Shown piece by piece: positions 1,199 to 58,005 of a stretch of DNA of 64,000 nucleotides. Below the pieces are notes generated by a model. That model did not search any database, was not told the DNA's origin, and saw nothing but the letters and a program-made list of their open reading frames with translations. The DNA is from a bacterium (GTDB taxonomy: Bacteria > Ratteibacteria > UBA8468 > B48-G9 > JAFGKM01). The stretch spans positions 390 through 64,389 of the forward strand of contig JAOAIL010000006.1 in NCBI GenBank assembly GCA_026414725.1, in the 5' to 3' direction. Within the stretch, counting starts at the first letter, position 1; every line of letters starts with the position of its first letter. The position numbers were made by a program, and so were the translations under genes.

Positions 1199-3712
1199 TT
1201 AAATAATAATTGACTGTTCTTTTATTTTGTTTACCTTTAAAACCCAAATATTCTCAGAATAACTCCGTAATTTTCTACTTATTTCAACATCTTTCTGCAC
1301 TATTTTATCTTTTAAAATATTCCATAAAGTATCTATTATTTCCCGTTCTTTTATTTTCCATCCTGATAAATTTATTACATATTTAGCTATGATTTCCTTT
1401 TTAAACCAAAGCCAAGTAATGTCCAAATTATTTAGAATAGCATCATTTATTTTTTTAATTATTTCATTTTCATGTTCTGATTTTATTATTGACATAGAAA
1501 AAATCTCTCTAAATAAATTATGCGCTTCTTCTTTATACTCAGAAACATAGCCAGCGTTCAAAATTGATACTGTCTGAAAAAAAGTATTGATATACTCTGA
1601 ATTTTCTAAATTGTCATAAAGTCCTTCAACCAACTTTTGTTTCTCCTTTTCTGTAAAATTATTTTTATTTTTTAAAATTTCTAGGGTTCCCTTCAATAAA
1701 ATCTCTTCATATATCTTTCCTTTCCCAGATTCTATATATCCTTTTTCTTTTATATAATAGACATATATGTTTTTTTCATTTTGAGAATAATAATTTTCAT
1801 ATGTAAAAATTCTATTTGAATCTTTAATACTTCCTGTTAATACATTTACTCTCCTCATTATTCTTCCCATACGTTGAATCAAAGAATCCATTGGAGCAAT
1901 CTCTGTAAATAAATAATCTGCATCTATATCCAATGATGCTTCAATAACTTGAGTAGCAACAAGTATTTTAGATTTATTCTCATCTTCGGGTTTAGGATTA
2001 TTGAATTCTTCTTCCAGTCTTTTTTCCTTTTCCTTTCTTTCTTCTAATGTAAATCTTGAATGTAGTATATCAAGGTATATTTTTTGATCTTTAGTACTAT
2101 TTTTTATGTATTCATACATTTCCTCTGCTTTTTCAACAGTATTACAAACCACAAGAACTCTTTTACCTTTTTTAGATTTATCTATAATTTCTCTTATATC
2201 ATCTGTAATACTTTTATCTCGCAATTCTATCTTATGCCTGATAAGATCGTCTTTTATTTCAGAATAATAATTAATAATATCGCTATCCGATATGACATTC
2301 TTATCTTTCAAATAATTCTTTACAAAATTAGGAAGTGTTGCTGTCATCAATAAAAATTTACCACCCAGAGAAACAATATCTTCTATTAATTTTACTATCA
2401 TTGCACATGCTTTTGGATTATATGCTTGAACTTCATCTATTACTAATCTTGAATAGCCTAAAGTTGCATAAACTTTTTCGTATTGAGGGTATTTTAAAGA
2501 TGCAGGAAAAATCTGGTCTCCTGTACATATATTTATGGGTAAAGAAAAATGTCTTGAAAGGTCTAGAATTTTAAGTAGTTCCCCATCTATATCTTCTGTT
2601 GAATTGCTTGATTTTTCCACCAAATAAAGGTCTGCATCTGAATGTAAAAGTCCCACATTTTCATTTATGAAAGGGTCTTCTTCTTTAAAAATAGCAGCAT
2701 TTGATTGGTTTAAGTATTTAGAGATACGGTCAAATATTTGGTTTGTGGCACATCTTAAAGGAAGTGTATAAAAAAGTTTCTCATCCTCTGACCACAATAA
2801 AGCAAATTCTGTTTTACCAATACCTGTCGGGGCAATAAGAATCAAATTTTTGTTTTTAAAATTTTCAACCATATCTTTCTGCCAAAATTGTTTGCCAAAA
2901 TGTTTTTCTAATATATTCTCAATAATAGAAATTCTTTTTGTTTCCTTTTCAACTTCGCATAAAGTAATACCACGGTGTTCTTGCCTTTCTACAAATGAAG
3001 TAAAATGGTCTGCTCTTATTAAAAAGCCAGAAAGAAAAATCCACAGATTAAGGTCTATTTTCAATTCTATTTCCAGTTTTAATCTCTCTGGTAGAAAATA
3101 AAGAGTGTACGGAGGGATTATCCCAATACTGGTTAAATTACCCCCTTGAGAAATTTGTTTTACAATATGTTCATCAAATGAAATATAATCAGTTACGGCC
3201 AATCCATCTATTTTAAAATTAGAAAAAATTTTTTTTAGTTCTTCCGTAAGTGTTGCTCCATTACTATTCTTTAACAGAAATTCTGCTGTTTCTCTCAAAT
3301 CATTATTTATTTGCAAAAGATACTTTTTTTCGTCTATTTTCCAGTGATGAAAAGCAACAGCAGATAAAAATGTTGTATATAAACTTTCGCTATTTCTACA
3401 TATTGTCTTTACTTTTTCCTTGTCTATGAAGAACAAGGATAGAATATTGTGTCTTACATAAGGAAATTTATTATTGGAAGTCAGGGTATTGGTATTACCT
3501 ATCTTTTTCTGAAAAGAAGGCGATATTTTCCCAAGGTCATGAAAAAATCCAGCCCATTTAAGCAGATATTTTAAATAATACTCATCAATATTAGAACCGT
3601 TTTTAAAATTGCCATAGTTTAATTTATCTAAAGGTAGTTTTTCAATTGTTTTTATCACATCTTCAGTGTGTTTAATTAATAGTACTCCACTAGATTTTGC
3701 CCATATATCCAT
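1199..3712 (-). CDS. cas3: Cas3 fused HD nuclease plus DExH helicase
   Basis: N-terminal HD motif FFHDLGK, Walker A LIAPTGIGKTEFAL, DEVQ box. 837 aa. Confidence 0.9.
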   Translation of the reverse strand: MDIWAKSSGVLLIKHTEDVIKTIEKLPLDKLNYGNFKNGSNIDEYYLKYLLKWAGFFHDLGKISPSFQKKIGNTNTLTSNNKFPYVRHNILSLFFIDKEKVKTICRNSESLYTTFLSAVAFHHWKIDEKKYLLQINNDLRETAEFLLKNSNGATLTEELKKIFSNFKIDGLAVTDYISFDEHIVKQISQGGNLTSIGIIPPYTLYFLPERLKLEIELKIDLNLWIFLSGFLIRADHFTSFVERQEHRGITLCEVEKETKRISIIENILEKHFGKQFWQKDMVENFKNKNLILIAPTGIGKTEFALLWSEDEKLFYTLPLRCATNQIFDRISKYLNQSNAAIFKEEDPFINENVGLLHSDADLYLVEKSSNSTEDIDGELLKILDLSRHFSLPINICTGDQIFPASLKYPQYEKVYATLGYSRLVIDEVQAYNPKACAMIVKLIEDIVSLGGKFLLMTATLPNFVKNYLKDKNVISDSDIINYYSEIKDDLIRHKIELRDKSITDDIREIIDKSKKGKRVLVVCNTVEKAEEMYEYIKNSTKDQKIYLDILHSRFTLEERKEKEKRLEEEFNNPKPEDENKSKILVATQVIEASLDIDADYLFTEIAPMDSLIQRMGRIMRRVNVLTGSIKDSNRIFTYENYYSQNEKNIYVYYIKEKGYIESGKGKIYEEILLKGTLEILKNKNNFTEKEKQKLVEGLYDNLENSEYINTFFQTVSILNAGYVSEYKEEAHNLFREIFSMSIIKSEHENEIIKKINDAILNNLDITWLWFKKEIIAKYVINLSGWKIKEREIIDTLWNILKDKIVQKDVEISRKLRSYSENIWVLKVNKIKEQSIII

Positions 3713-7568: not shown

Positions 7569-7819
7569 ATCTTTATCCAGAATTTTACTCCCCTTTTTAC
7601 TTCAGGGTATTTAAAAGCAATTTTGAAAGTTTCTTCAGGATATTGATAATAAATTTCTTTTATATCTTCAAAATTACCATAGGTGAGTATTCTTAATATA
7701 TACTTTTCAAGGACAACATCTTTTGCACAATCCCAGAATATACTTCTATATTTTTCAGGAATGTTTACTTTTTCTTTATATGTAATATTTATTCTTTGAG
7801 TTTTTCCTATGGTCTTCAT
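7547..7819 (-). CDS. 90-aa protein of unknown function, upstream partner of the NTase (possible antitoxin/adaptor)
   Basis: 6 nt after the cas6 stop, with a 22-nt overlap with the NTase gene. No recognised motif. Confidence 0.4.
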   Translation of the reverse strand: MKTIGKTQRINITYKEKVNIPEKYRSIFWDCAKDVVLEKYILRILTYGNFEDIKEIYYQYPEETFKIAFKYPEVKRGVKFWIKIWKKQNK

Positions 7820-7825
7820 CTTATC

Positions 7826-8572
7826 TCATAACTGTTTTATTACATCAATCATTCCAAAACCCTGGCCAGTTCTTACTCCTATCCCAAAATCATATAAAAA
7901 TTGCAATACTTCAGGATTCCCTTCAAGGGAAAAGCCACCTTTAAATCCTTTTGCATATCCACCAAAAACAGGAACTATTATTTCTGTTATTCTATAATCC
8001 GGTAGGATATTAAATTGTATATTACTTTTCAATGTTTTTCCTAAGATAGAACTATAACTTATTGCTGTTCTTTCATTAAATACTTCATTGAACTTCTGTA
8101 TGTTATCTTTTGAGGGAACTGTAAACCATTCAGAAAAGTTAGAAGGAGAAGCAGATGGGTCTGTCATTACTATTGCACCTATGGATTTACAAATAATCTT
8201 TGAGGAATTTATCCTACGCTGTGGGAGAAGTTGTATATTCTCAAGGACAAACTTTACTCCTTCAATTTCTATAAATGCATTCTCGTTCTTTTGAAGAGAT
8301 AGTATTCCATTCCAAAAGTGAGAAATTACTGAAATATCACCGGAAGAAAAAATGATAGATATATCAGGTCCTAAAATACCTTTCTCCCAGTTTAGCCCGA
8401 GAAATGGAGAATAGACATAGGGTTTTACCTTCTTGGTACTAAATAGTTCTTCGTATTCTAATTGTGAGGCGGTGGAGAATATCTTTTTAAGAAATGATAT
8501 GAAATACTTTCTGATGTCTTTATTCTTTTCTGTCTTTATAGAGTTGCCTTTCAAAATAAGAGAAAATCGCAT
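7826..8572 (-). CDS. cas6: Cas6 crRNA endoribonuclease
   Basis: MRFSLILK N-terminus and the C-terminal glycine-rich loop GVRTGQGFGMIDV. Confidence 0.8.
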   Translation of the reverse strand: MRFSLILKGNSIKTEKNKDIRKYFISFLKKIFSTASQLEYEELFSTKKVKPYVYSPFLGLNWEKGILGPDISIIFSSGDISVISHFWNGILSLQKNENAFIEIEGVKFVLENIQLLPQRRINSSKIICKSIGAIVMTDPSASPSNFSEWFTVPSKDNIQKFNEVFNERTAISYSSILGKTLKSNIQFNILPDYRITEIIVPVFGGYAKGFKGGFSLEGNPEVLQFLYDFGIGVRTGQGFGMIDVIKQL

Positions 8573-8652
8573 TTTAATTATTTTACCTTTAATTTATAAA
8601 AGTGTAAATAGATGTTATTACATTGTCTTACTCTTTCCTTGCATCTTTCTTC

Positions 8653-8925
8653 AGGAGAGGGTAAAAGACCAATCCCTCCCGTATTAGGGGGTGGGAAAAT
8701 AAGTGTGGGTAGAGAATAAAGCAACGGTTTCACCCTCACCCGTACCCTCTCCCCTCAAGGGAGAGGATATAGAATAAAGAATTGAGGAGAAAGTAAGGGA
8801 AGATTTCATTCCCACCCTGTTCTGACGGACTTAAGACACCCACCTCACCATCTCGGTGGGTGTGCTATACAATGTTCCTTACCCGTCGCACCAGCACCCA
8901 TCTCTCCTCAAGAGAGGGGAAATAA
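8653..8925. repeat. Composite GC-rich multi-hairpin intergenic repeat, including a reverse-orientation copy of the 95-nt module
   Basis: Contains CACCCTCACCCgtaCCCTCTCCCCTCAAGGGAGAGG and a 95-nt module at about 8806-8900. Confidence 0.8.
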
Positions 8926-8967
8926 GGTGGTTTTATAAAAAAGGGTGGATGTGGTAAGATATAAGGG

Positions 8968-9732
8968 ATGGAAGCAAAAAAATTCATAATAAAAGATAAT
9001 CTTTTTCTGACAGAAAAACTTTATCTATTGGAATTAGAAGGAAATTTTAATAAGGTACCTGTACCTGGACAGTTTGTACATATAAAGATAGAGCCATTCT
9101 TTTTAAGAAGACCTTTTTCTATCGCAGGATATAGCAAAAATTATTTAAAGATAGTTTATAAAGTGGTAGGAAGAGCAACTGAGGTATTGAGTAGAAAACA
9201 AAATGGAGAATTACTTGATGTTATAGGACCACTGGGAAATGGTTTTCCTGTTAATAAAAAATGGAAAAATATATATCTTGCTGGTGGAGGAACAGGTATT
9301 GCTCCCCTTCTATTTCTCACAGAAGCATTATTACAGCAAAACTGTAGTATAACTTTTTTTTATGGAGCAAGAACTTCTGAATGTATTGCTTTTAATATCC
9401 TGCCTTATAAAGTTAACTATGTATTTTCTACTGATGATGGTTCTTATGGGGAGAAGGGATTACTCGGTGATATACTTGAAAAACATATAGAGAAAGATGG
9501 TTCACCAGATGTTATATATGGAGGAGGACCTTACGGATTACTTAAAGATATAGCGAGAATTTCTCAGGAATATGAAACACCTGCTTTTGTTTCAATGGAA
9601 AACAGGATGGCGTGTGGAGTGGGTATATGTTATGGATGTGTCACTAAAATAAAAGGGAAAAATGGATGGGAATATAAAAGAGTATGTAAGGATGGACCTG
9701 TTTTTAATGTAAAAGAGGTTGTATGGGAATAA
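8968..9732 (+). CDS. pyrK: Dihydroorotate dehydrogenase electron-transfer subunit
   Basis: FAD/NAD-binding fold and C-terminal 2Fe-2S motif CGVGICYGCV. Confidence 0.9.
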   Translation: MEAKKFIIKDNLFLTEKLYLLELEGNFNKVPVPGQFVHIKIEPFFLRRPFSIAGYSKNYLKIVYKVVGRATEVLSRKQNGELLDVIGPLGNGFPVNKKWKNIYLAGGGTGIAPLLFLTEALLQQNCSITFFYGARTSECIAFNILPYKVNYVFSTDDGSYGEKGLLGDILEKHIEKDGSPDVIYGGGPYGLLKDIARISQEYETPAFVSMENRMACGVGICYGCVTKIKGKNGWEYKRVCKDGPVFNVKEVVWE

Positions 9733-29411: not shown

Positions 29412-29470
29412 GGGGGATAATAAAGGTCTCACCCTCACCCTGTCCCTCTCCCCTCAAGGGAGAGGGAAAC
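29412..29470. repeat. Single hairpin-a repeat unit upstream of the tRNA pair
   Basis: GGTCTCACCCTCACCCTGTCCCTCTCCCCTCAAGGGAGAGGG. Confidence 0.8.
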
Positions 29471-29484
29471 TAATTTATAATTTT

Positions 29485-29558
29485 GCGCCCATAGTTCAAC
29501 TGGATAGAACGTCGGGTTGCGGACCCGAAAGTTGCTGGTTCAAATCCGGCTGGGCGCA
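29485..29558 (+). tRNA. tRNA-Arg; anticodon reads GCG in my hand fold
   Basis: Cloverleaf: acceptor GCGCCCA/TGGGCGC, D-arm GTTC..GAAC, anticodon stem TCGGG/CCCGA with loop TTGCGGA, T-arm GCTGG-TTCAAAT-CCGGC. Confidence 0.65.
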
Positions 29559-29560
29559 CA

Positions 29561-29636
29561 CGGGGCGTGGCTCAGCCTGGTTAAGAGCGCTTGGTTCGGG
29601 ACCAAGAGGTCGGCGGTTCAAATCCGCCCGCCCCGA
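29561..29636 (+). tRNA. tRNA-Pro (anticodon CGG)
   Basis: C1:G72 acceptor, anticodon loop TTCGGGA, T-loop TTCAAAT. 2 nt after tRNA-Arg. Confidence 0.7.
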
Positions 29637-55423: not shown

Positions 55424-55655
55424 CTCCTACCCATATGAGGGGGAGAGACCTAAATTACCTTCTCCCTCGGGGGGAGAAGGTAAGGATGAGGGATAAAGTT
55501 TAGCAAAGGTCTCACCCTCACCCTGCCCCTCTCCCCTCAAGGGAGAGGGAAAACAGTTCCTCCCCATATGAGGGGGGAGGATATAGGTGGGGGTAGAGAG
55601 TAAAAGTAAAGTTCTCACCCTCCCCTTAATCCCCTCCCCTCAAGGGAGAGGGATA
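55424..55655. repeat. Tandem pair of composite hairpin repeats between pstB and phoU
   Basis: Hairpins b (CCCATATGAGGGGGAG), c (ACCTTCTCCCTCGGGGGGAGAAGGT) and a (CCCTCTCCCCTCAAGGGAGAGGG), twice. Confidence 0.85.
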
Positions 55656-55673
55656 AAACATAAGGAGAGAAAA

Positions 55674-56327
55674 ATGATAGAACAAGAGATACAGCGGTTA
55701 AAAGAAAGTATCATTGCTTATGCATCTTTTGTAGCGAGAATGATAGAAGAAAGTATTACAGGACTGCTTGAAAAAGATGAAAAAATATTGAAAAAACTTA
55801 TAGAGGAAGAAGAAACAAAAGCAAACCATACAGAGATAGAGATTGAAGAAATATGTATTGAGGCAATTGCGCGGTATGAACCGAAAGCAAAGAATTTAAG
55901 AACCGTCCTTATGATAATGAAGATTAACAACGACCTTGAAAGAATAGGTGATGAAGCAGTTAATATTGCAGAAGCATCCCTTTTTCTTATAAAAAAACCA
56001 GAGGTAAAAAAACTTATAGATATTCCTCGTATGGCAGATTTGAGTGTAAGGATGTTAAAAGATAGTATCCAGTCGTTTGTAACAGATAATTCTATGCTTG
56101 CCCGTGAAATATGCACAAGAGATGATGTAGTGGATAATTTAAGAGACCAGGTAATCAGAGAACTTTTAACCTATATGATAACAGACCCTGCAACTATAGA
56201 AAGGGCATTACAACTTATGAGGGTTGCACGCTCACTTGAACGGGTGGCAGACCTTTCAACAAACTTCTGTGAAGATGTGGTATTTATGGTTGAAGGGAAA
56301 AATATCAAACACCACGCAGAAGAATAA
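55674..56327 (+). CDS. phoU: Phosphate transport system regulator PhoU
   Basis: Two PhoU repeats. Start moved to the internal Met (MIEQE) because the upstream part of the ORF translates repeat DNA. Confidence 0.85.
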   Translation: MIEQEIQRLKESIIAYASFVARMIEESITGLLEKDEKILKKLIEEEETKANHTEIEIEEICIEAIARYEPKAKNLRTVLMIMKINNDLERIGDEAVNIAEASLFLIKKPEVKKLIDIPRMADLSVRMLKDSIQSFVTDNSMLAREICTRDDVVDNLRDQVIRELLTYMITDPATIERALQLMRVARSLERVADLSTNFCEDVVFMVEGKNIKHHAEE

Positions 56328-56350: not shown

Positions 56351-56378
56351 TTGACAAAATTTTGTATATGGGTATAAT
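56351..56378 (+). promoter_or_regulatory. Consensus sigma70 promoter (TTGACA, 16 nt spacer, TATAAT)
   Basis: Perfect hexamers about 15 nt upstream of the riboswitch. Confidence 0.6.
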
Positions 56379-56394
56379 ATCACAAAATTGGAGA

Positions 56395-56570
56395 TAATAT
56401 CTCAGAGTGCCCGAGAGGGCTTAATAGGGAAGTGTCGCACTCACCAAGGTGAGGAGACGACTACGCTCCCGGCGCTGTAGGGCTGACGAAATTCCAAAAG
56501 CCACTGTCTGAAAAGACGGGAAGGTGGAAGAGTAGAATGAAGCCCAAGTCAGAAGACCTGCTCTGAGGAA
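56395..56570 (+). promoter_or_regulatory. Cobalamin (AdoCbl) riboswitch aptamer
   Basis: Blocks CTTAATAGGGAAG, GCCACTG...GACGGGAAGGTGG and B12-box-like AAGCCCAAGTCAGAAGACCTGC, in the same order as the E. coli btuB leader. Closing helix CTCAGAG/CTCTGAG. Confidence 0.7.
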
Positions 56571-56637
56571 TGGCGCAGCTTTTTCCTGCGGAGTACAGGA
56601 AAAAGGGTTTTTGTATTTTAGGCGAAGAAAACAGGGT

Positions 56638-56676
56638 GCAGCCCGCCATATATTTTGGCGGGCTTTTTTATTTCTC
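56638..56676 (+). terminator. Intrinsic terminator (riboswitch expression platform)
   Basis: GCCCGCCA-loop-TGGCGGGC followed by TTTTTTATTTCT. Confidence 0.7.
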
Positions 56677-56682
56677 AAACAA

Positions 56683-56920
56683 ATCCTCCCCATATAAGAG
56701 GGAGAGACATAAATTACCTTATCCCTATGGGGGAGAAGGTTAAGAGGGGGAAAGTATAGTGAAGGTCTCACCCTCACCCTGTCCCTCTCCCCTCAAGGGA
56801 GAGGAAAGAAAGTCCTCCCCATATGAGGGGGGAGGAATTAGGTGGGGGTGGAGAGTGTAAGCAAAGGTTTCACCCTCACCCTGTCCCTCTCCCCTCTAAG
56901 GGAGAGGGAAGGGGAGAGGG
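56683..56920. repeat. Tandem pair of composite hairpin repeats between the riboswitch terminator and the RNase HII-like gene
   Basis: Same b-c-a hairpin order. 56815-56875 is nearly identical to 57828-57888. Confidence 0.85.
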
Positions 56921-56935
56921 ATAATAAGGGATGCT

Positions 56936-57808
56936 ATGCCAGAGAAAAAAAGGATACTCGGGATAGATGAAAATGGACTTGGACCGCTTATGGGTCCTCT
57001 CGTCATTACAGGAGTCCTGTTAAGGTATGGAGGAAAAGACGTTTGGTTTGATGGTATAAGTGATAGCAAGGAATTTTTTTCAAGAAATATAGACAGGTTC
57101 TCACAATTAGAAGATACGGTTTTATCTCTTTTTTATCTTCTTGAAGGTAGAACACCTTCATCTCCAGTAGAAATACTTGAAAATTTCTGTGTAAAATATG
57201 ATTGTCTTTCCGGATTGAATATCTGCACCCGTAATATTCCGGATAGGTTTATATGGTCGGAAGGTAAAAAATGTGAAGAGTTGTCTGGATGGATGGGAAA
57301 GAATGGAATAGAGATAGAAAAGATACAATCAATTGCTCTATGTCCCAAGAGAATCAACAATTTTATAGAAAAGGGAGACCATAAATTCCTGCTTAATCTT
57401 TCTGCATTCTGCGATATTATAAAGAACCTCCCTGATAAAAATATGCTCTCTGTATATGCAGGCAGGGTTGGAGGATTAAAATTTTACAAAAAATATCTAA
57501 CTTATTACCTTTATGACTATCAATGTGAAACTATTGAAGAGAAAGAAGATGTCTCCTTATACCGGATGGAAGGAGATAATGAAACATTCACAATGGGCTT
57601 TTACACAGATGTAGAGAAGAAATCCTTTCCTGCTGCAATTGCATCAATTATAGGGAAATATATTAGAGAGTTATTTATGGCAGGTATACGGAAAACTCTC
57701 GGGATATCAGAAGATATCTCCGGCTATCATGACAGGAGAACAAAAAAATTTGTCCCTTCCATCTCCCCTGAAAGGTTTCCTTCAGATTGTATCTTCCGCT
57801 CAAAATAG
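56936..57808 (+). CDS. Divergent RNase HII-like protein with a large Cys-containing insertion
   Basis: RNase H2 motifs GIDENGLGPLMGP (GIDEAGRGP), GISDSKEF (DSK), and AAIASIIGKYIRE (ASIxAKxxRD, with E in place of D). 290 aa against about 200 for canonical RnhB. Confidence 0.55.
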   Translation: MPEKKRILGIDENGLGPLMGPLVITGVLLRYGGKDVWFDGISDSKEFFSRNIDRFSQLEDTVLSLFYLLEGRTPSSPVEILENFCVKYDCLSGLNICTRNIPDRFIWSEGKKCEELSGWMGKNGIEIEKIQSIALCPKRINNFIEKGDHKFLLNLSAFCDIIKNLPDKNMLSVYAGRVGGLKFYKKYLTYYLYDYQCETIEEKEDVSLYRMEGDNETFTMGFYTDVEKKSFPAAIASIIGKYIRELFMAGIRKTLGISEDISGYHDRRTKKFVPSISPERFPSDCIFRSK

Positions 57809-57819
57809 TATAAAGAGAA

Positions 57820-57930
57820 ATCCTCCCCATATGAGGGGGGAGGAATTAGGTGGGGGTGGAGAGTGTAAGCAAAGGATTCACCCTCACCCATCCCCTCTCC
57901 CCTCAAGGGAGAGGGATGGGGAAAGGGGAT
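57820..57930. repeat. Composite hairpin repeat
   Basis: TCCTCCCCATATGAGGGGGGAGG ... GGTGGGGGTGGAGAGTGTAAGCAAAGG ... CCCTCTCCCCTCAAGGGAGAGGG. Confidence 0.85.
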
Positions 57931-57976
57931 ACAATTTAAGTAAACTTTCAAATTTTATCTTATTATATATGATGAG

Positions 57977-58005
57977 TTGACAAAAATATAGATAGGTATT
58001 AAAAT
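57977..58005 (+). promoter_or_regulatory. Sigma70-type promoter (TTGACA, 17 nt spacer, TAAAAT), with RBS AAGGAGG ahead of the ferredoxin gene
   Basis: Consensus hexamers. Confidence 0.5.

Follow-up and report, generated by a model that had tools for sequence, protein, structure and literature searches.

A divergent RNase HII-fold protein next to a cobalamin riboswitch: a widespread family and a probably incidental adjacency

Introduction

RNase HIII has the catalytic motif DEDE. Rli55 of Listeria and EutX of Enterococcus are riboswitch-terminated non-coding RNAs under vitamin B12 (cobalamin) control. These systems, together with the RNase HII of Thermococcus kodakarensis (Tk), are among the references for the locus described here, which lies on contig JAOAIL010000006.1 of a Ratteibacteria assembly (GenBank GCA_026414725.1). 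The whole stretch of 64,000 nucleotides that was analyzed (positions 390 to 64,389 of the contig, forward strand) is referred to as the window. Its open reading frame (ORF) at 56936-57808 encodes a 290-aa protein with an RNase HII fold and follows a cobalamin riboswitch. The original prediction, made from the sequence alone, described a divergent, enlarged RNase HII-like protein as the apparent target of that riboswitch. The protein belongs to a large family, which is the firmer result of this study, and its adjacency to the riboswitch is, by a small preponderance of the evidence, read as incidental.

Riboswitch unit

The features between the riboswitch promoter and the end of the ORF are the following (positions in the window).

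56351..56378, plus strand: sigma-70-type promoter, TTGACA-16-TATAAT, 12/12, which drives the riboswitch transcript
56388..56579, plus strand: cobalamin riboswitch aptamer RF00174 (Rfam 94.8 bits, E 2.7e-24, full model positions 1-189)
56559..56597, plus strand: antiterminator, formed by the P1 3' strand (CUGCUCUGAGGAA) with the T1 5' arm and loop, -16.1 kcal/mol
56579..56619, plus strand: T1, switchable terminator, a 10-bp AU-rich hairpin (56579-56605; -10.7 kcal/mol) followed by GGUUUUUGUAUUUU; ensemble pair probability 0.27
56640..56674, plus strand: T2, strong terminator without a competing fold, a 9-bp hairpin (56640-56664; 7 GC pairs, -18.0 kcal/mol) followed by UUUUUUAUUU
56684..56925, plus strand: composite cluster of three hairpin units resembling repetitive extragenic palindromic (REP) elements, which ends at the Shine-Dalgarno region of the ORF
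56936..57808, plus strand: 290-aa RNase HII-fold protein; proposed active site D11, E12, D225 and E227; DSK at 43-45; SGY at 262-264; putative Cys4 site C90, C97, C136 and C285

The aptamer was scored against a gathering score of 31.5 bits, carries GCCACUG and the B12 box AGUCAGAAGACCUGC in a motif screen, and is the single cobalamin riboswitch found by Rfam in the window. When P1 is open, the antiterminator is predicted to outcompete T1 (-16.1 vs -10.7 kcal/mol), which is the classic OFF-switch layout and gives, by prediction, the competition between aptamer strand and terminator that characterizes a cobalamin riboswitch. The leader is interrupted by T2. This hairpin starts 35 nt past that of T1, carries a U6 tail, forms in every fold with a pair probability of about 1.0, and is unique in sequence within the window. 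Since no fold competes with T2, polymerases that escape T1 meet a strong terminator before they reach the repeats and the ORF. No sigma-70-like promoter was predicted on the plus strand between the riboswitch promoter and the ORF. As had been noted earlier, no other gene on this strand comes between the riboswitch and the ORF; the distance from the aptamer is 356 nt.

Two terminators in tandem behind the aptamer predict transcripts of about 230 nt when B12 is present and about 290 nt when it is absent. With this arrangement the unit could produce short RNAs only, and as modeled it could be a stand-alone B12-responsive RNA or a recently orphaned switch.

Genomic context of the riboswitch and of the homologues

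The adjacency of riboswitch and gene was unique to this contig and did not recur in related genomes. Rfam detected no cobalamin riboswitch in 59 homologue loci (at most 6-8 kb of flank each, a few of them near-duplicates), and a screen for GCCACUG and the B12 box, which recovers the switch of the window, was negative in the remaining loci. Instead, in 17 loci of the subfamily to which the window protein belongs, the gene immediately upstream encodes a TauE-family transporter, and in close relatives the gene is often the last of an operon of FMN reductase, a 439-aa protein and TauE that converges on argS-rbfA. The spacer between TauE and the gene measures 4-620 nt and is often filled with GC-rich REP-like units of the type found in the window; no promoter-like site was found within these spacers. 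A search of the window for TauE, FMN reductase, argS and rbfA returned none of them.

The upstream neighbors in the window are pstS, pstC, pstA, pstB and phoU, and the downstream neighbors are genes for a small ferredoxin and a TPR/YkuD L,D-transpeptidase, followed by trpE and trpG. Metagenomic relatives with a PhoU 74-80% identical to that of the window keep pstA-pstB-phoU and have a LacI-like regulator next; the phoU stop codon is exactly where their homology to the window breaks off. In these relatives, no riboswitch (Rfam, 8 phoU loci) and none of the downstream genes of the window were found. The promoter 3' of phoU was compared between the window and one of the relatives (L099) and is not homologous, as only the consensus hexamers match. 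From these comparisons, the segment with riboswitch and nuclease is placed between two synteny breaks, and the REP cluster at 56684-56925 is read as the ancestral upstream spacer of the gene.

Three further features of the region are the following.

55425-55668: second copy of the three-unit composite of about 240 nt, between pstB and phoU
57818..57931, plus strand: pair of REP-like units 3' of the ORF, 85% identical to 56810-56923
57977..58005, plus strand: separate site resembling a promoter (11/12), followed by the genes for ferredoxin and L,D-transpeptidase and by trpEG

By virtue of the last of these, the ferredoxin, L,D-transpeptidase and trpEG genes appear independent of the riboswitch promoter. 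The composite hairpins have T-runs on the minus strand only. Because one composite lies inside pstB-phoU, which are normally co-transcribed, the repeats are no evidence of uncoupling between riboswitch and gene.

Relation between the riboswitch and the ORF

On balance, we lean towards an incidental, lineage-specific juxtaposition that arose from a REP-associated rearrangement, with the riboswitch unit ending at T1 or T2. The gene would ancestrally have been the promoter-less last gene of a TauE-transporter operon, with REP-like repeats between TauE and the gene. A rearrangement would have swapped out the TauE side, with a breakpoint at or next to the REP cluster and, in the other direction, immediately after phoU. 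The new upstream neighbor would have been a self-contained B12 riboswitch unit of consensus promoter, aptamer, antiterminator/T1 and T2. With B12 bound, the transcript would end at T1, and in the absence of B12 it would mostly end at T2. The nuclease gene would then get leaky read-through only, and its B12 response would be a side effect and not an evolved regulon link.

The lack of the riboswitch in the homologue loci, the TauE context with the synteny breaks, and the unregulated T2 are three independent lines that together make evolved B12 control doubtful. The claim that the ORF is the apparent riboswitch target thus keeps its physical basis (first ORF, same strand, no intervening promoter), and it is weakened by the 59 homologue loci, by the interposed T2 and by the TauE neighbor in relatives.

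Several points weigh against an incidental adjacency. No promoter was predicted between T2 and the ORF, so transcription probably comes from the riboswitch promoter or from the upstream pst operon and passes through T1, which makes some B12 dependence plausible. The repeats need not block read-through, given the composite in the co-transcribed pstB-phoU pair, and the strengths of T1 and T2 are predictions. In addition, the intact riboswitch with its perfect promoter argues for a continuing role at this locus. Expression of the gene could be weakly B12-responsive.

These same observations can be extended to genuine, selected B12 control, in which T1 terminates with B12 and, without it, a useful fraction of transcripts passes T1, T2 and the REP cluster and the nuclease is expressed. 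We regard this as rather unlikely. The antiterminator/T1 competition is of textbook form, REP clusters are tolerated within operons, and both riboswitch and promoter are intact in front of a same-strand first ORF with no promoter between. With the 242-nt REP cluster set aside as an insertion, only about 20 nt would separate T2 from the Shine-Dalgarno sequence and ATG. The REP spacer is, however, ancestral upstream of the gene in relatives, and did not enter a riboswitch leader later on; no structure competes with T2, and the riboswitch is missing from the homologue loci. No B12-related gene was found among the neighbors or among ten larger genes elsewhere in the window (cas3, purL, pnp and several aminoacyl-tRNA synthetases among them), and the literature search found no link between a B12 riboswitch and an RNase H. 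A speculative rationale for selection would be that a shortage of B12 disables a B12-dependent ribonucleotide reductase, the ratio of deoxyribonucleoside to ribonucleoside triphosphates (dNTP/rNTP) then drops, more ribonucleoside monophosphates (rNMPs) enter DNA, and the need for RNase H2-type repair rises.

The junction might also be an artefact of assembly. The contig is metagenome-assembled, and riboswitch and gene could have been joined chimerically at the REP-like repeats, which share exact stretches of about 55 nt, occur on both flanks of the gene and recur at about 12 sites in the window. The broken synteny on both sides of the segment and the origin of the exact protein from a single contig would fit such a join. 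Nevertheless, we hold it to be highly unlikely: the GC content of the gene (about 35-36%) is like that of its neighbors, the exact shared stretches are short relative to typical final assembly k-mers, and the same repeat family lies upstream of the gene in relatives, which marks the REP-to-gene junction as genuine.

Protein family and fold

The ORF starts with ATG, and the N-terminus of its product agrees with the homologues (M..KR[IV]LGIDENG). A homology search returned 63 relatives, mostly from metagenome-assembled genomes (MAGs) of Ratteibacteria and Omnitrophota and nearly all 283-335 aa long. With the identical MAG protein MCX8082492.1 set aside, the nearest relative was 68% identical; the exact protein of the window was seen on one contig only. 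A profile was built from 59 relatives and searched against 1.84 billion representative proteins, which gave 949 clusters at 50% identity with E<=1e-30 and 2426 with E<=1e-10. The genome scan placed members in Ratteibacteria, Omnitrophota, Elusimicrobia, Aerophobetes, Calescibacterium, Planctomycetota and many Myxococcota. Members are annotated as 'hypothetical' or loosely as 'ribonuclease HII', and a literature search on RNase HII with Fe-S clusters and on paralogs found nothing relevant. The clade is large, widespread and, as far as names and literature show, uncharacterised, and the original prediction that the function is not evident from sequence holds.

The protein reached 36.2 bits with Pfam RNase_HII (PF01351), mainly over residues 8-54, and so exceeds the curated gathering threshold of 25.8 bits. 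The clade profile, in the kind of search that had been proposed earlier as a check, matched RNase HII sequences of the PDB at E 2e-15. An AlphaFold2 (AF2) model computed from the family alignment showed the three-dimensional fold of RNase HII (predicted local distance difference test 92.2, predicted template modeling score 0.92). All seven NCBIfam RnhB equivalog models, which include TIGR00729 and PRK00015, scored far under their cutoffs (best 31.9 bits vs cutoff 123.3). With its core RNase HII fold intact, the protein is a genuine member of the type 2 RNase H fold, and it is neither an RnhB equivalog nor an RNase HIII. The description as a divergent, enlarged RNase HII-like protein is borne out by the Pfam score above and the RnhB scores below their cutoffs, together with the confident fold.

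In the profile alignment, family positions 3-56 correspond to Tk 1-55 and positions 227-284 to Tk 132-186. The surplus length is about 100 residues (290 minus 189 aligned), of which about 94 must fall between 57 and 226 according to this mapping. The insertion of about 100 aa that had been described is thus right in size and not in kind: by the secondary structure of the AF2 model, the surplus forms several inserted elements and no single block. No extra Pfam domain was found in longer family members (P0190, P0199 and others). PADLOC gave zero matches and PHROGs insignificant matches only, so there is no sign of a role in a defence system or a phage.

Active site

Residue conservation was counted in 216 sequences of the clade. 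The motifs quoted in the original prediction are all in the translation (GIDENGLGP at 9-17, SDSK at 42-45 and AAIASIIGKYIRE at 233-245). D11 and E12 are kept by every sequence that has a residue at their columns (213/213), S44 and K45 never vary (216/216), and D43 is present in 211/216. E227 aligns with Tk D135 ('HKAD'), the Asp of the KAD/MDE motif in archaeal RNase HII, and the position is acidic throughout (D in 125/216, E in 91/216), so that the fourth catalytic carboxylate is in place.

The third catalytic Asp lies at the end of strand 4 (Tk D105, Tm D107), and we infer that Gly176 stands at this position in the window protein. The mapping follows from a comparison of 'SVYAG-RVGGLKFYKKYL...TFTMGFYTDVE' with archaeal 'FYID-AFSSPQRFLEKLKRFL...IIAENKMDE' and clade 'IIID-RQGGRTHYRKHL...HFVTKADKK'. 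The residue at 176 is Gly in 171/216 sequences, the window protein included, and Asp in 44/216, and by this mapping the third Asp would be missing from most of the clade. Position 136, which is Cys here and Asp or Glu in members that lack the cysteines, was considered as an equivalent of the third Asp and rejected for position 176. The latter was preferred because the pattern 'hhhD[KR]xGG + helix + strand + KAD' of D176-bearing members parallels archaeal 'FYIDA + helix + IIAENKMD'.

Positions 225 and 13 vary together with position 176. Sequences with Gly176 carry Asp (127) or Asn (29) at position 225 and Asn (156) at position 13; those with Asp176 carry Lys, Gly, Glu or Arg at position 225, as in canonical 'KAD', and Ala (36) at position 13, as in canonical 'DEAG'. 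From this covariation, the third carboxylate is read as relocated from strand 4 to strand 5 in a 'D-x-E/D' arrangement. The active site has probably been rewired and not lost, with Asp225, two residues before E227 on strand 5, as the compensating residue, and the window protein probably preserves four acidic residues (D11, E12, D225 and E227).

Some caution attaches to this reading. Gly176 was mapped by comparing motifs and topology and not by residue-level structural superposition, and both phmmer with a D176-bearing member and hhalign against E. coli RnhB and archaeal RNase HII aligned only the N- and C-terminal motifs. The Gly176 and Asp176 states may moreover mark two subclades, in which case the covariation counts are not independent events.

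Further conserved residues are E59, K/R177, E202, K241-Y242-x-R244-E245 and G263-Y264. Tyr264 of the SGY motif, the tyrosine of the 'GSGY' motif of RNase H2, is present in 215/216 sequences. The GRG motif, which together with this Tyr senses the 2'-OH at the RNA-DNA junction in RNase HII, corresponds to G14-L15-G16, with the Arg replaced by Leu, Phe or Tyr in the clade; the glycine backbone may be enough for such sensing.

It had been stated earlier that the protein keeps the RNase H2 catalytic motifs and that the last acidic residue is E and not D. The quoted motifs are present, but the third Asp appears replaced by Gly176, a change probably compensated by Asp225. The replacement of D by E is correct for KYIRE, where E245 is invariant, and E245 lies outside the four catalytic carboxylates. 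The larger deviation, Gly176 in place of the third Asp, had been overlooked, and the catalytic E227 is likewise a Glu.

The probably rewired active site with the conserved DSK and SGY motifs points to a metal-dependent nuclease, and we infer an active enzyme that acts on RNA/DNA hybrids or embedded ribonucleotides. Such an enzyme might be the housekeeping RNase HII of the lineage, replacing RnhB in ribonucleotide excision repair and the removal of Okazaki primers, and not a specialised paralogue. This is possible, although we find it doubtful. In its favor, the protein keeps the fold of a type 2 RNase H along with DSK, SGY and four acidic residues, the ORF is the only RNase HII-like one in the 64-kb window, and in relatives the gene sits among housekeeping genes, beside argS and rbfA. 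The RnhB equivalog scores far under all cutoffs speak against it, as do GLG for GRG, the rewired active site, the extra Cys4 module and the presence of the clade also in Myxococcota with large genomes.

Cysteine residues

C90, C97, C136 and C285 are kept together, with all four in 135/216 sequences, none in 51/216 and an intermediate number in 30/216. Among the other cysteines, those listed in the original prediction included, C85, C113, C159 and C197 show weaker conservation or none. All-or-none retention of cysteines in cytoplasmic proteins of mostly anaerobic lineages suggests one shared metal site, and the four residues probably form a Cys4 site for Zn or an Fe-S cluster.

In members without the cysteines, Asp or Glu is frequent at position 136 and Trp at position 97. 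Judged from these alignments, the Cys4 site may replace another arrangement of packing or charge and not be a pure addition.

Repeats and other features of the window

The REP-like units belong to a GC-rich palindromic family of intergenic repeats with the core CCCTCTCCCCTCAAGGGAGAGG, which had 17 matches at about 12 sites in the window vs 0 expected. The sites are as follows.

8745, 29444, 41436, 47984, 52430, 55425-55668, 56684-56925, 57818-57931, 62251, 63084 and 63254: dispersed repeat sites

The repeats cluster as composites of about 240 nt and give spurious 'PSPLRGEGQGEG'-type ORFs on translation. Intergenic spacers of related MAGs contain related units. For phoU, the mechanical ORF call (55587-56327, GTG at 55587) crosses the REP composite; relatives start at the counterpart of the ATG at 55674 (MIEQEIQ...), which is most likely the true start here too. 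Two adjacent tRNA genes (29485-29558 and 29561-29636, plus strand) lie beside the REP-like unit at 29444. A gene for a Cas3 HD-helicase (Cas3_HD, DEAD, Cas3-like_C_2) at 1199-3712 on the minus strand suggests a type I CRISPR-Cas locus.

Among the homologue loci, pairing with a membrane exporter recurs in distant phyla (gene-pair set L001-L007, L010, L016-L034, L043 and L044; further L014, L053, L061, L068, L073, L078, L085 and L088). A TauE/TSUP gene is directly upstream in 17 loci of the Omnitrophota/Ratteibacteria type. In 11 Myxococcota loci, genes of one family of about 450-510 aa lie downstream of the RNase HII-like gene, sometimes with an overlap of a few bases. The downstream gene of L014, the only member checked, is of the MatE family. 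In a second subclade from Ratteibacteria (L035-L042), the gene is followed by genes for a HEAT-repeat-like protein of 229 aa and a prepilin-type N-methyl/SBP_bac_10 protein. In one Omnitrophota MAG, a 6S RNA gene (L049, 4349-4508) precedes the homologue by about 1.5 kb, probably by coincidence. One locus with a PhoU 57% identical to that of the window (L103) has a nearly full-length 16S rRNA gene at 7712-9185, 2 kb downstream of phoU, which could serve for the taxonomic placement of that lineage.

Significance

If the riboswitch link were functional, DNA repair or ribonucleotide removal would join the short list of B12-controlled processes, and a coupling of B12 and a nuclease would be a regulatory link undescribed for any riboswitch class. 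The evidence makes this link unlikely. In the boldest version, the B12 riboswitch would throttle a rewired, metal-cluster nuclease of RNase H2 type and so couple cobalamin supply to the removal of rNMPs from DNA, for example via a B12-dependent ribonucleotide reductase and the dNTP/rNTP balance; independently of this, the clade would be a new subtype of type 2 RNase H, with the third carboxylate moved from strand 4 to strand 5 and a Cys4 Zn/Fe-S module added. We consider this whole picture improbable.

The protein family stands on firmer ground. It comprises about 1000 clusters at 50% identity in several phyla and has no characterised member, and its shared traits are a probably re-positioned catalytic carboxylate and an all-or-none Cys4 site. 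Knowledge of its substrate would refine the classification of RNases H and annotation in candidate phyla. The locus also calls for caution in another respect, namely that being the first gene after a riboswitch is insufficient for assignment to a regulon when terminators, repeats and synteny breaks intervene.

Comparison with known systems

The riboswitch unit resembles Rli55 and EutX in that a cobalamin aptamer with its own promoter and terminators would yield, according to the B12 level, a shorter or longer RNA without any ORF under direct regulation. The likeness goes no further; unlike in Rli55 and EutX, there are no ANTAR-type hairpins or eut genes at the locus, and the 60-nt T1-T2 segment has no recognised function. 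The repeats of the window are similar to REP elements and bacterial interspersed mosaic elements (BIMEs) as dispersed, GC-rich intergenic hairpins that are clustered, found within operons and located at synteny breakpoints, but differ from the known REP and BIME in that their sequence family is lineage-specific.

With RNase HIII (Bst-RNase HIII, PDB 2d0a), the protein has in common a length of about 300 aa and Glu as the last catalytic residue. In contrast to RNase HIII, it has no N-terminal TBP-like substrate-binding domain (about 90 aa); its DE motif starts at residue 11, and the extra residues are internal.

The protein shares G-x-D-E-x-G-x-G-P, DSK, the A-S-I-x-[AG]-K helix, the tyrosine of SGY and the fourth carboxylate position, kept as E or D, with archaeal and bacterial RNase HII, such as that of T. 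kodakarensis (PDB 1io2). It differs from RNase HII in the approximately 94 extra residues between the DSK helix and strand 5, in GLG for GRG, in Gly176-Lys/Arg177 for the third Asp of strand 4 with the probably compensating Asp225, in 'RE' for 'RD', and in the putative Cys4 module and a C-terminal C-x-x-R. For shifted carboxylates in an RNase H fold, LC9-RNase H1 (PDB 4ibn), described in the title of its entry as a 'type 1 RNase H with the type 2 active-site motif', provides a precedent.

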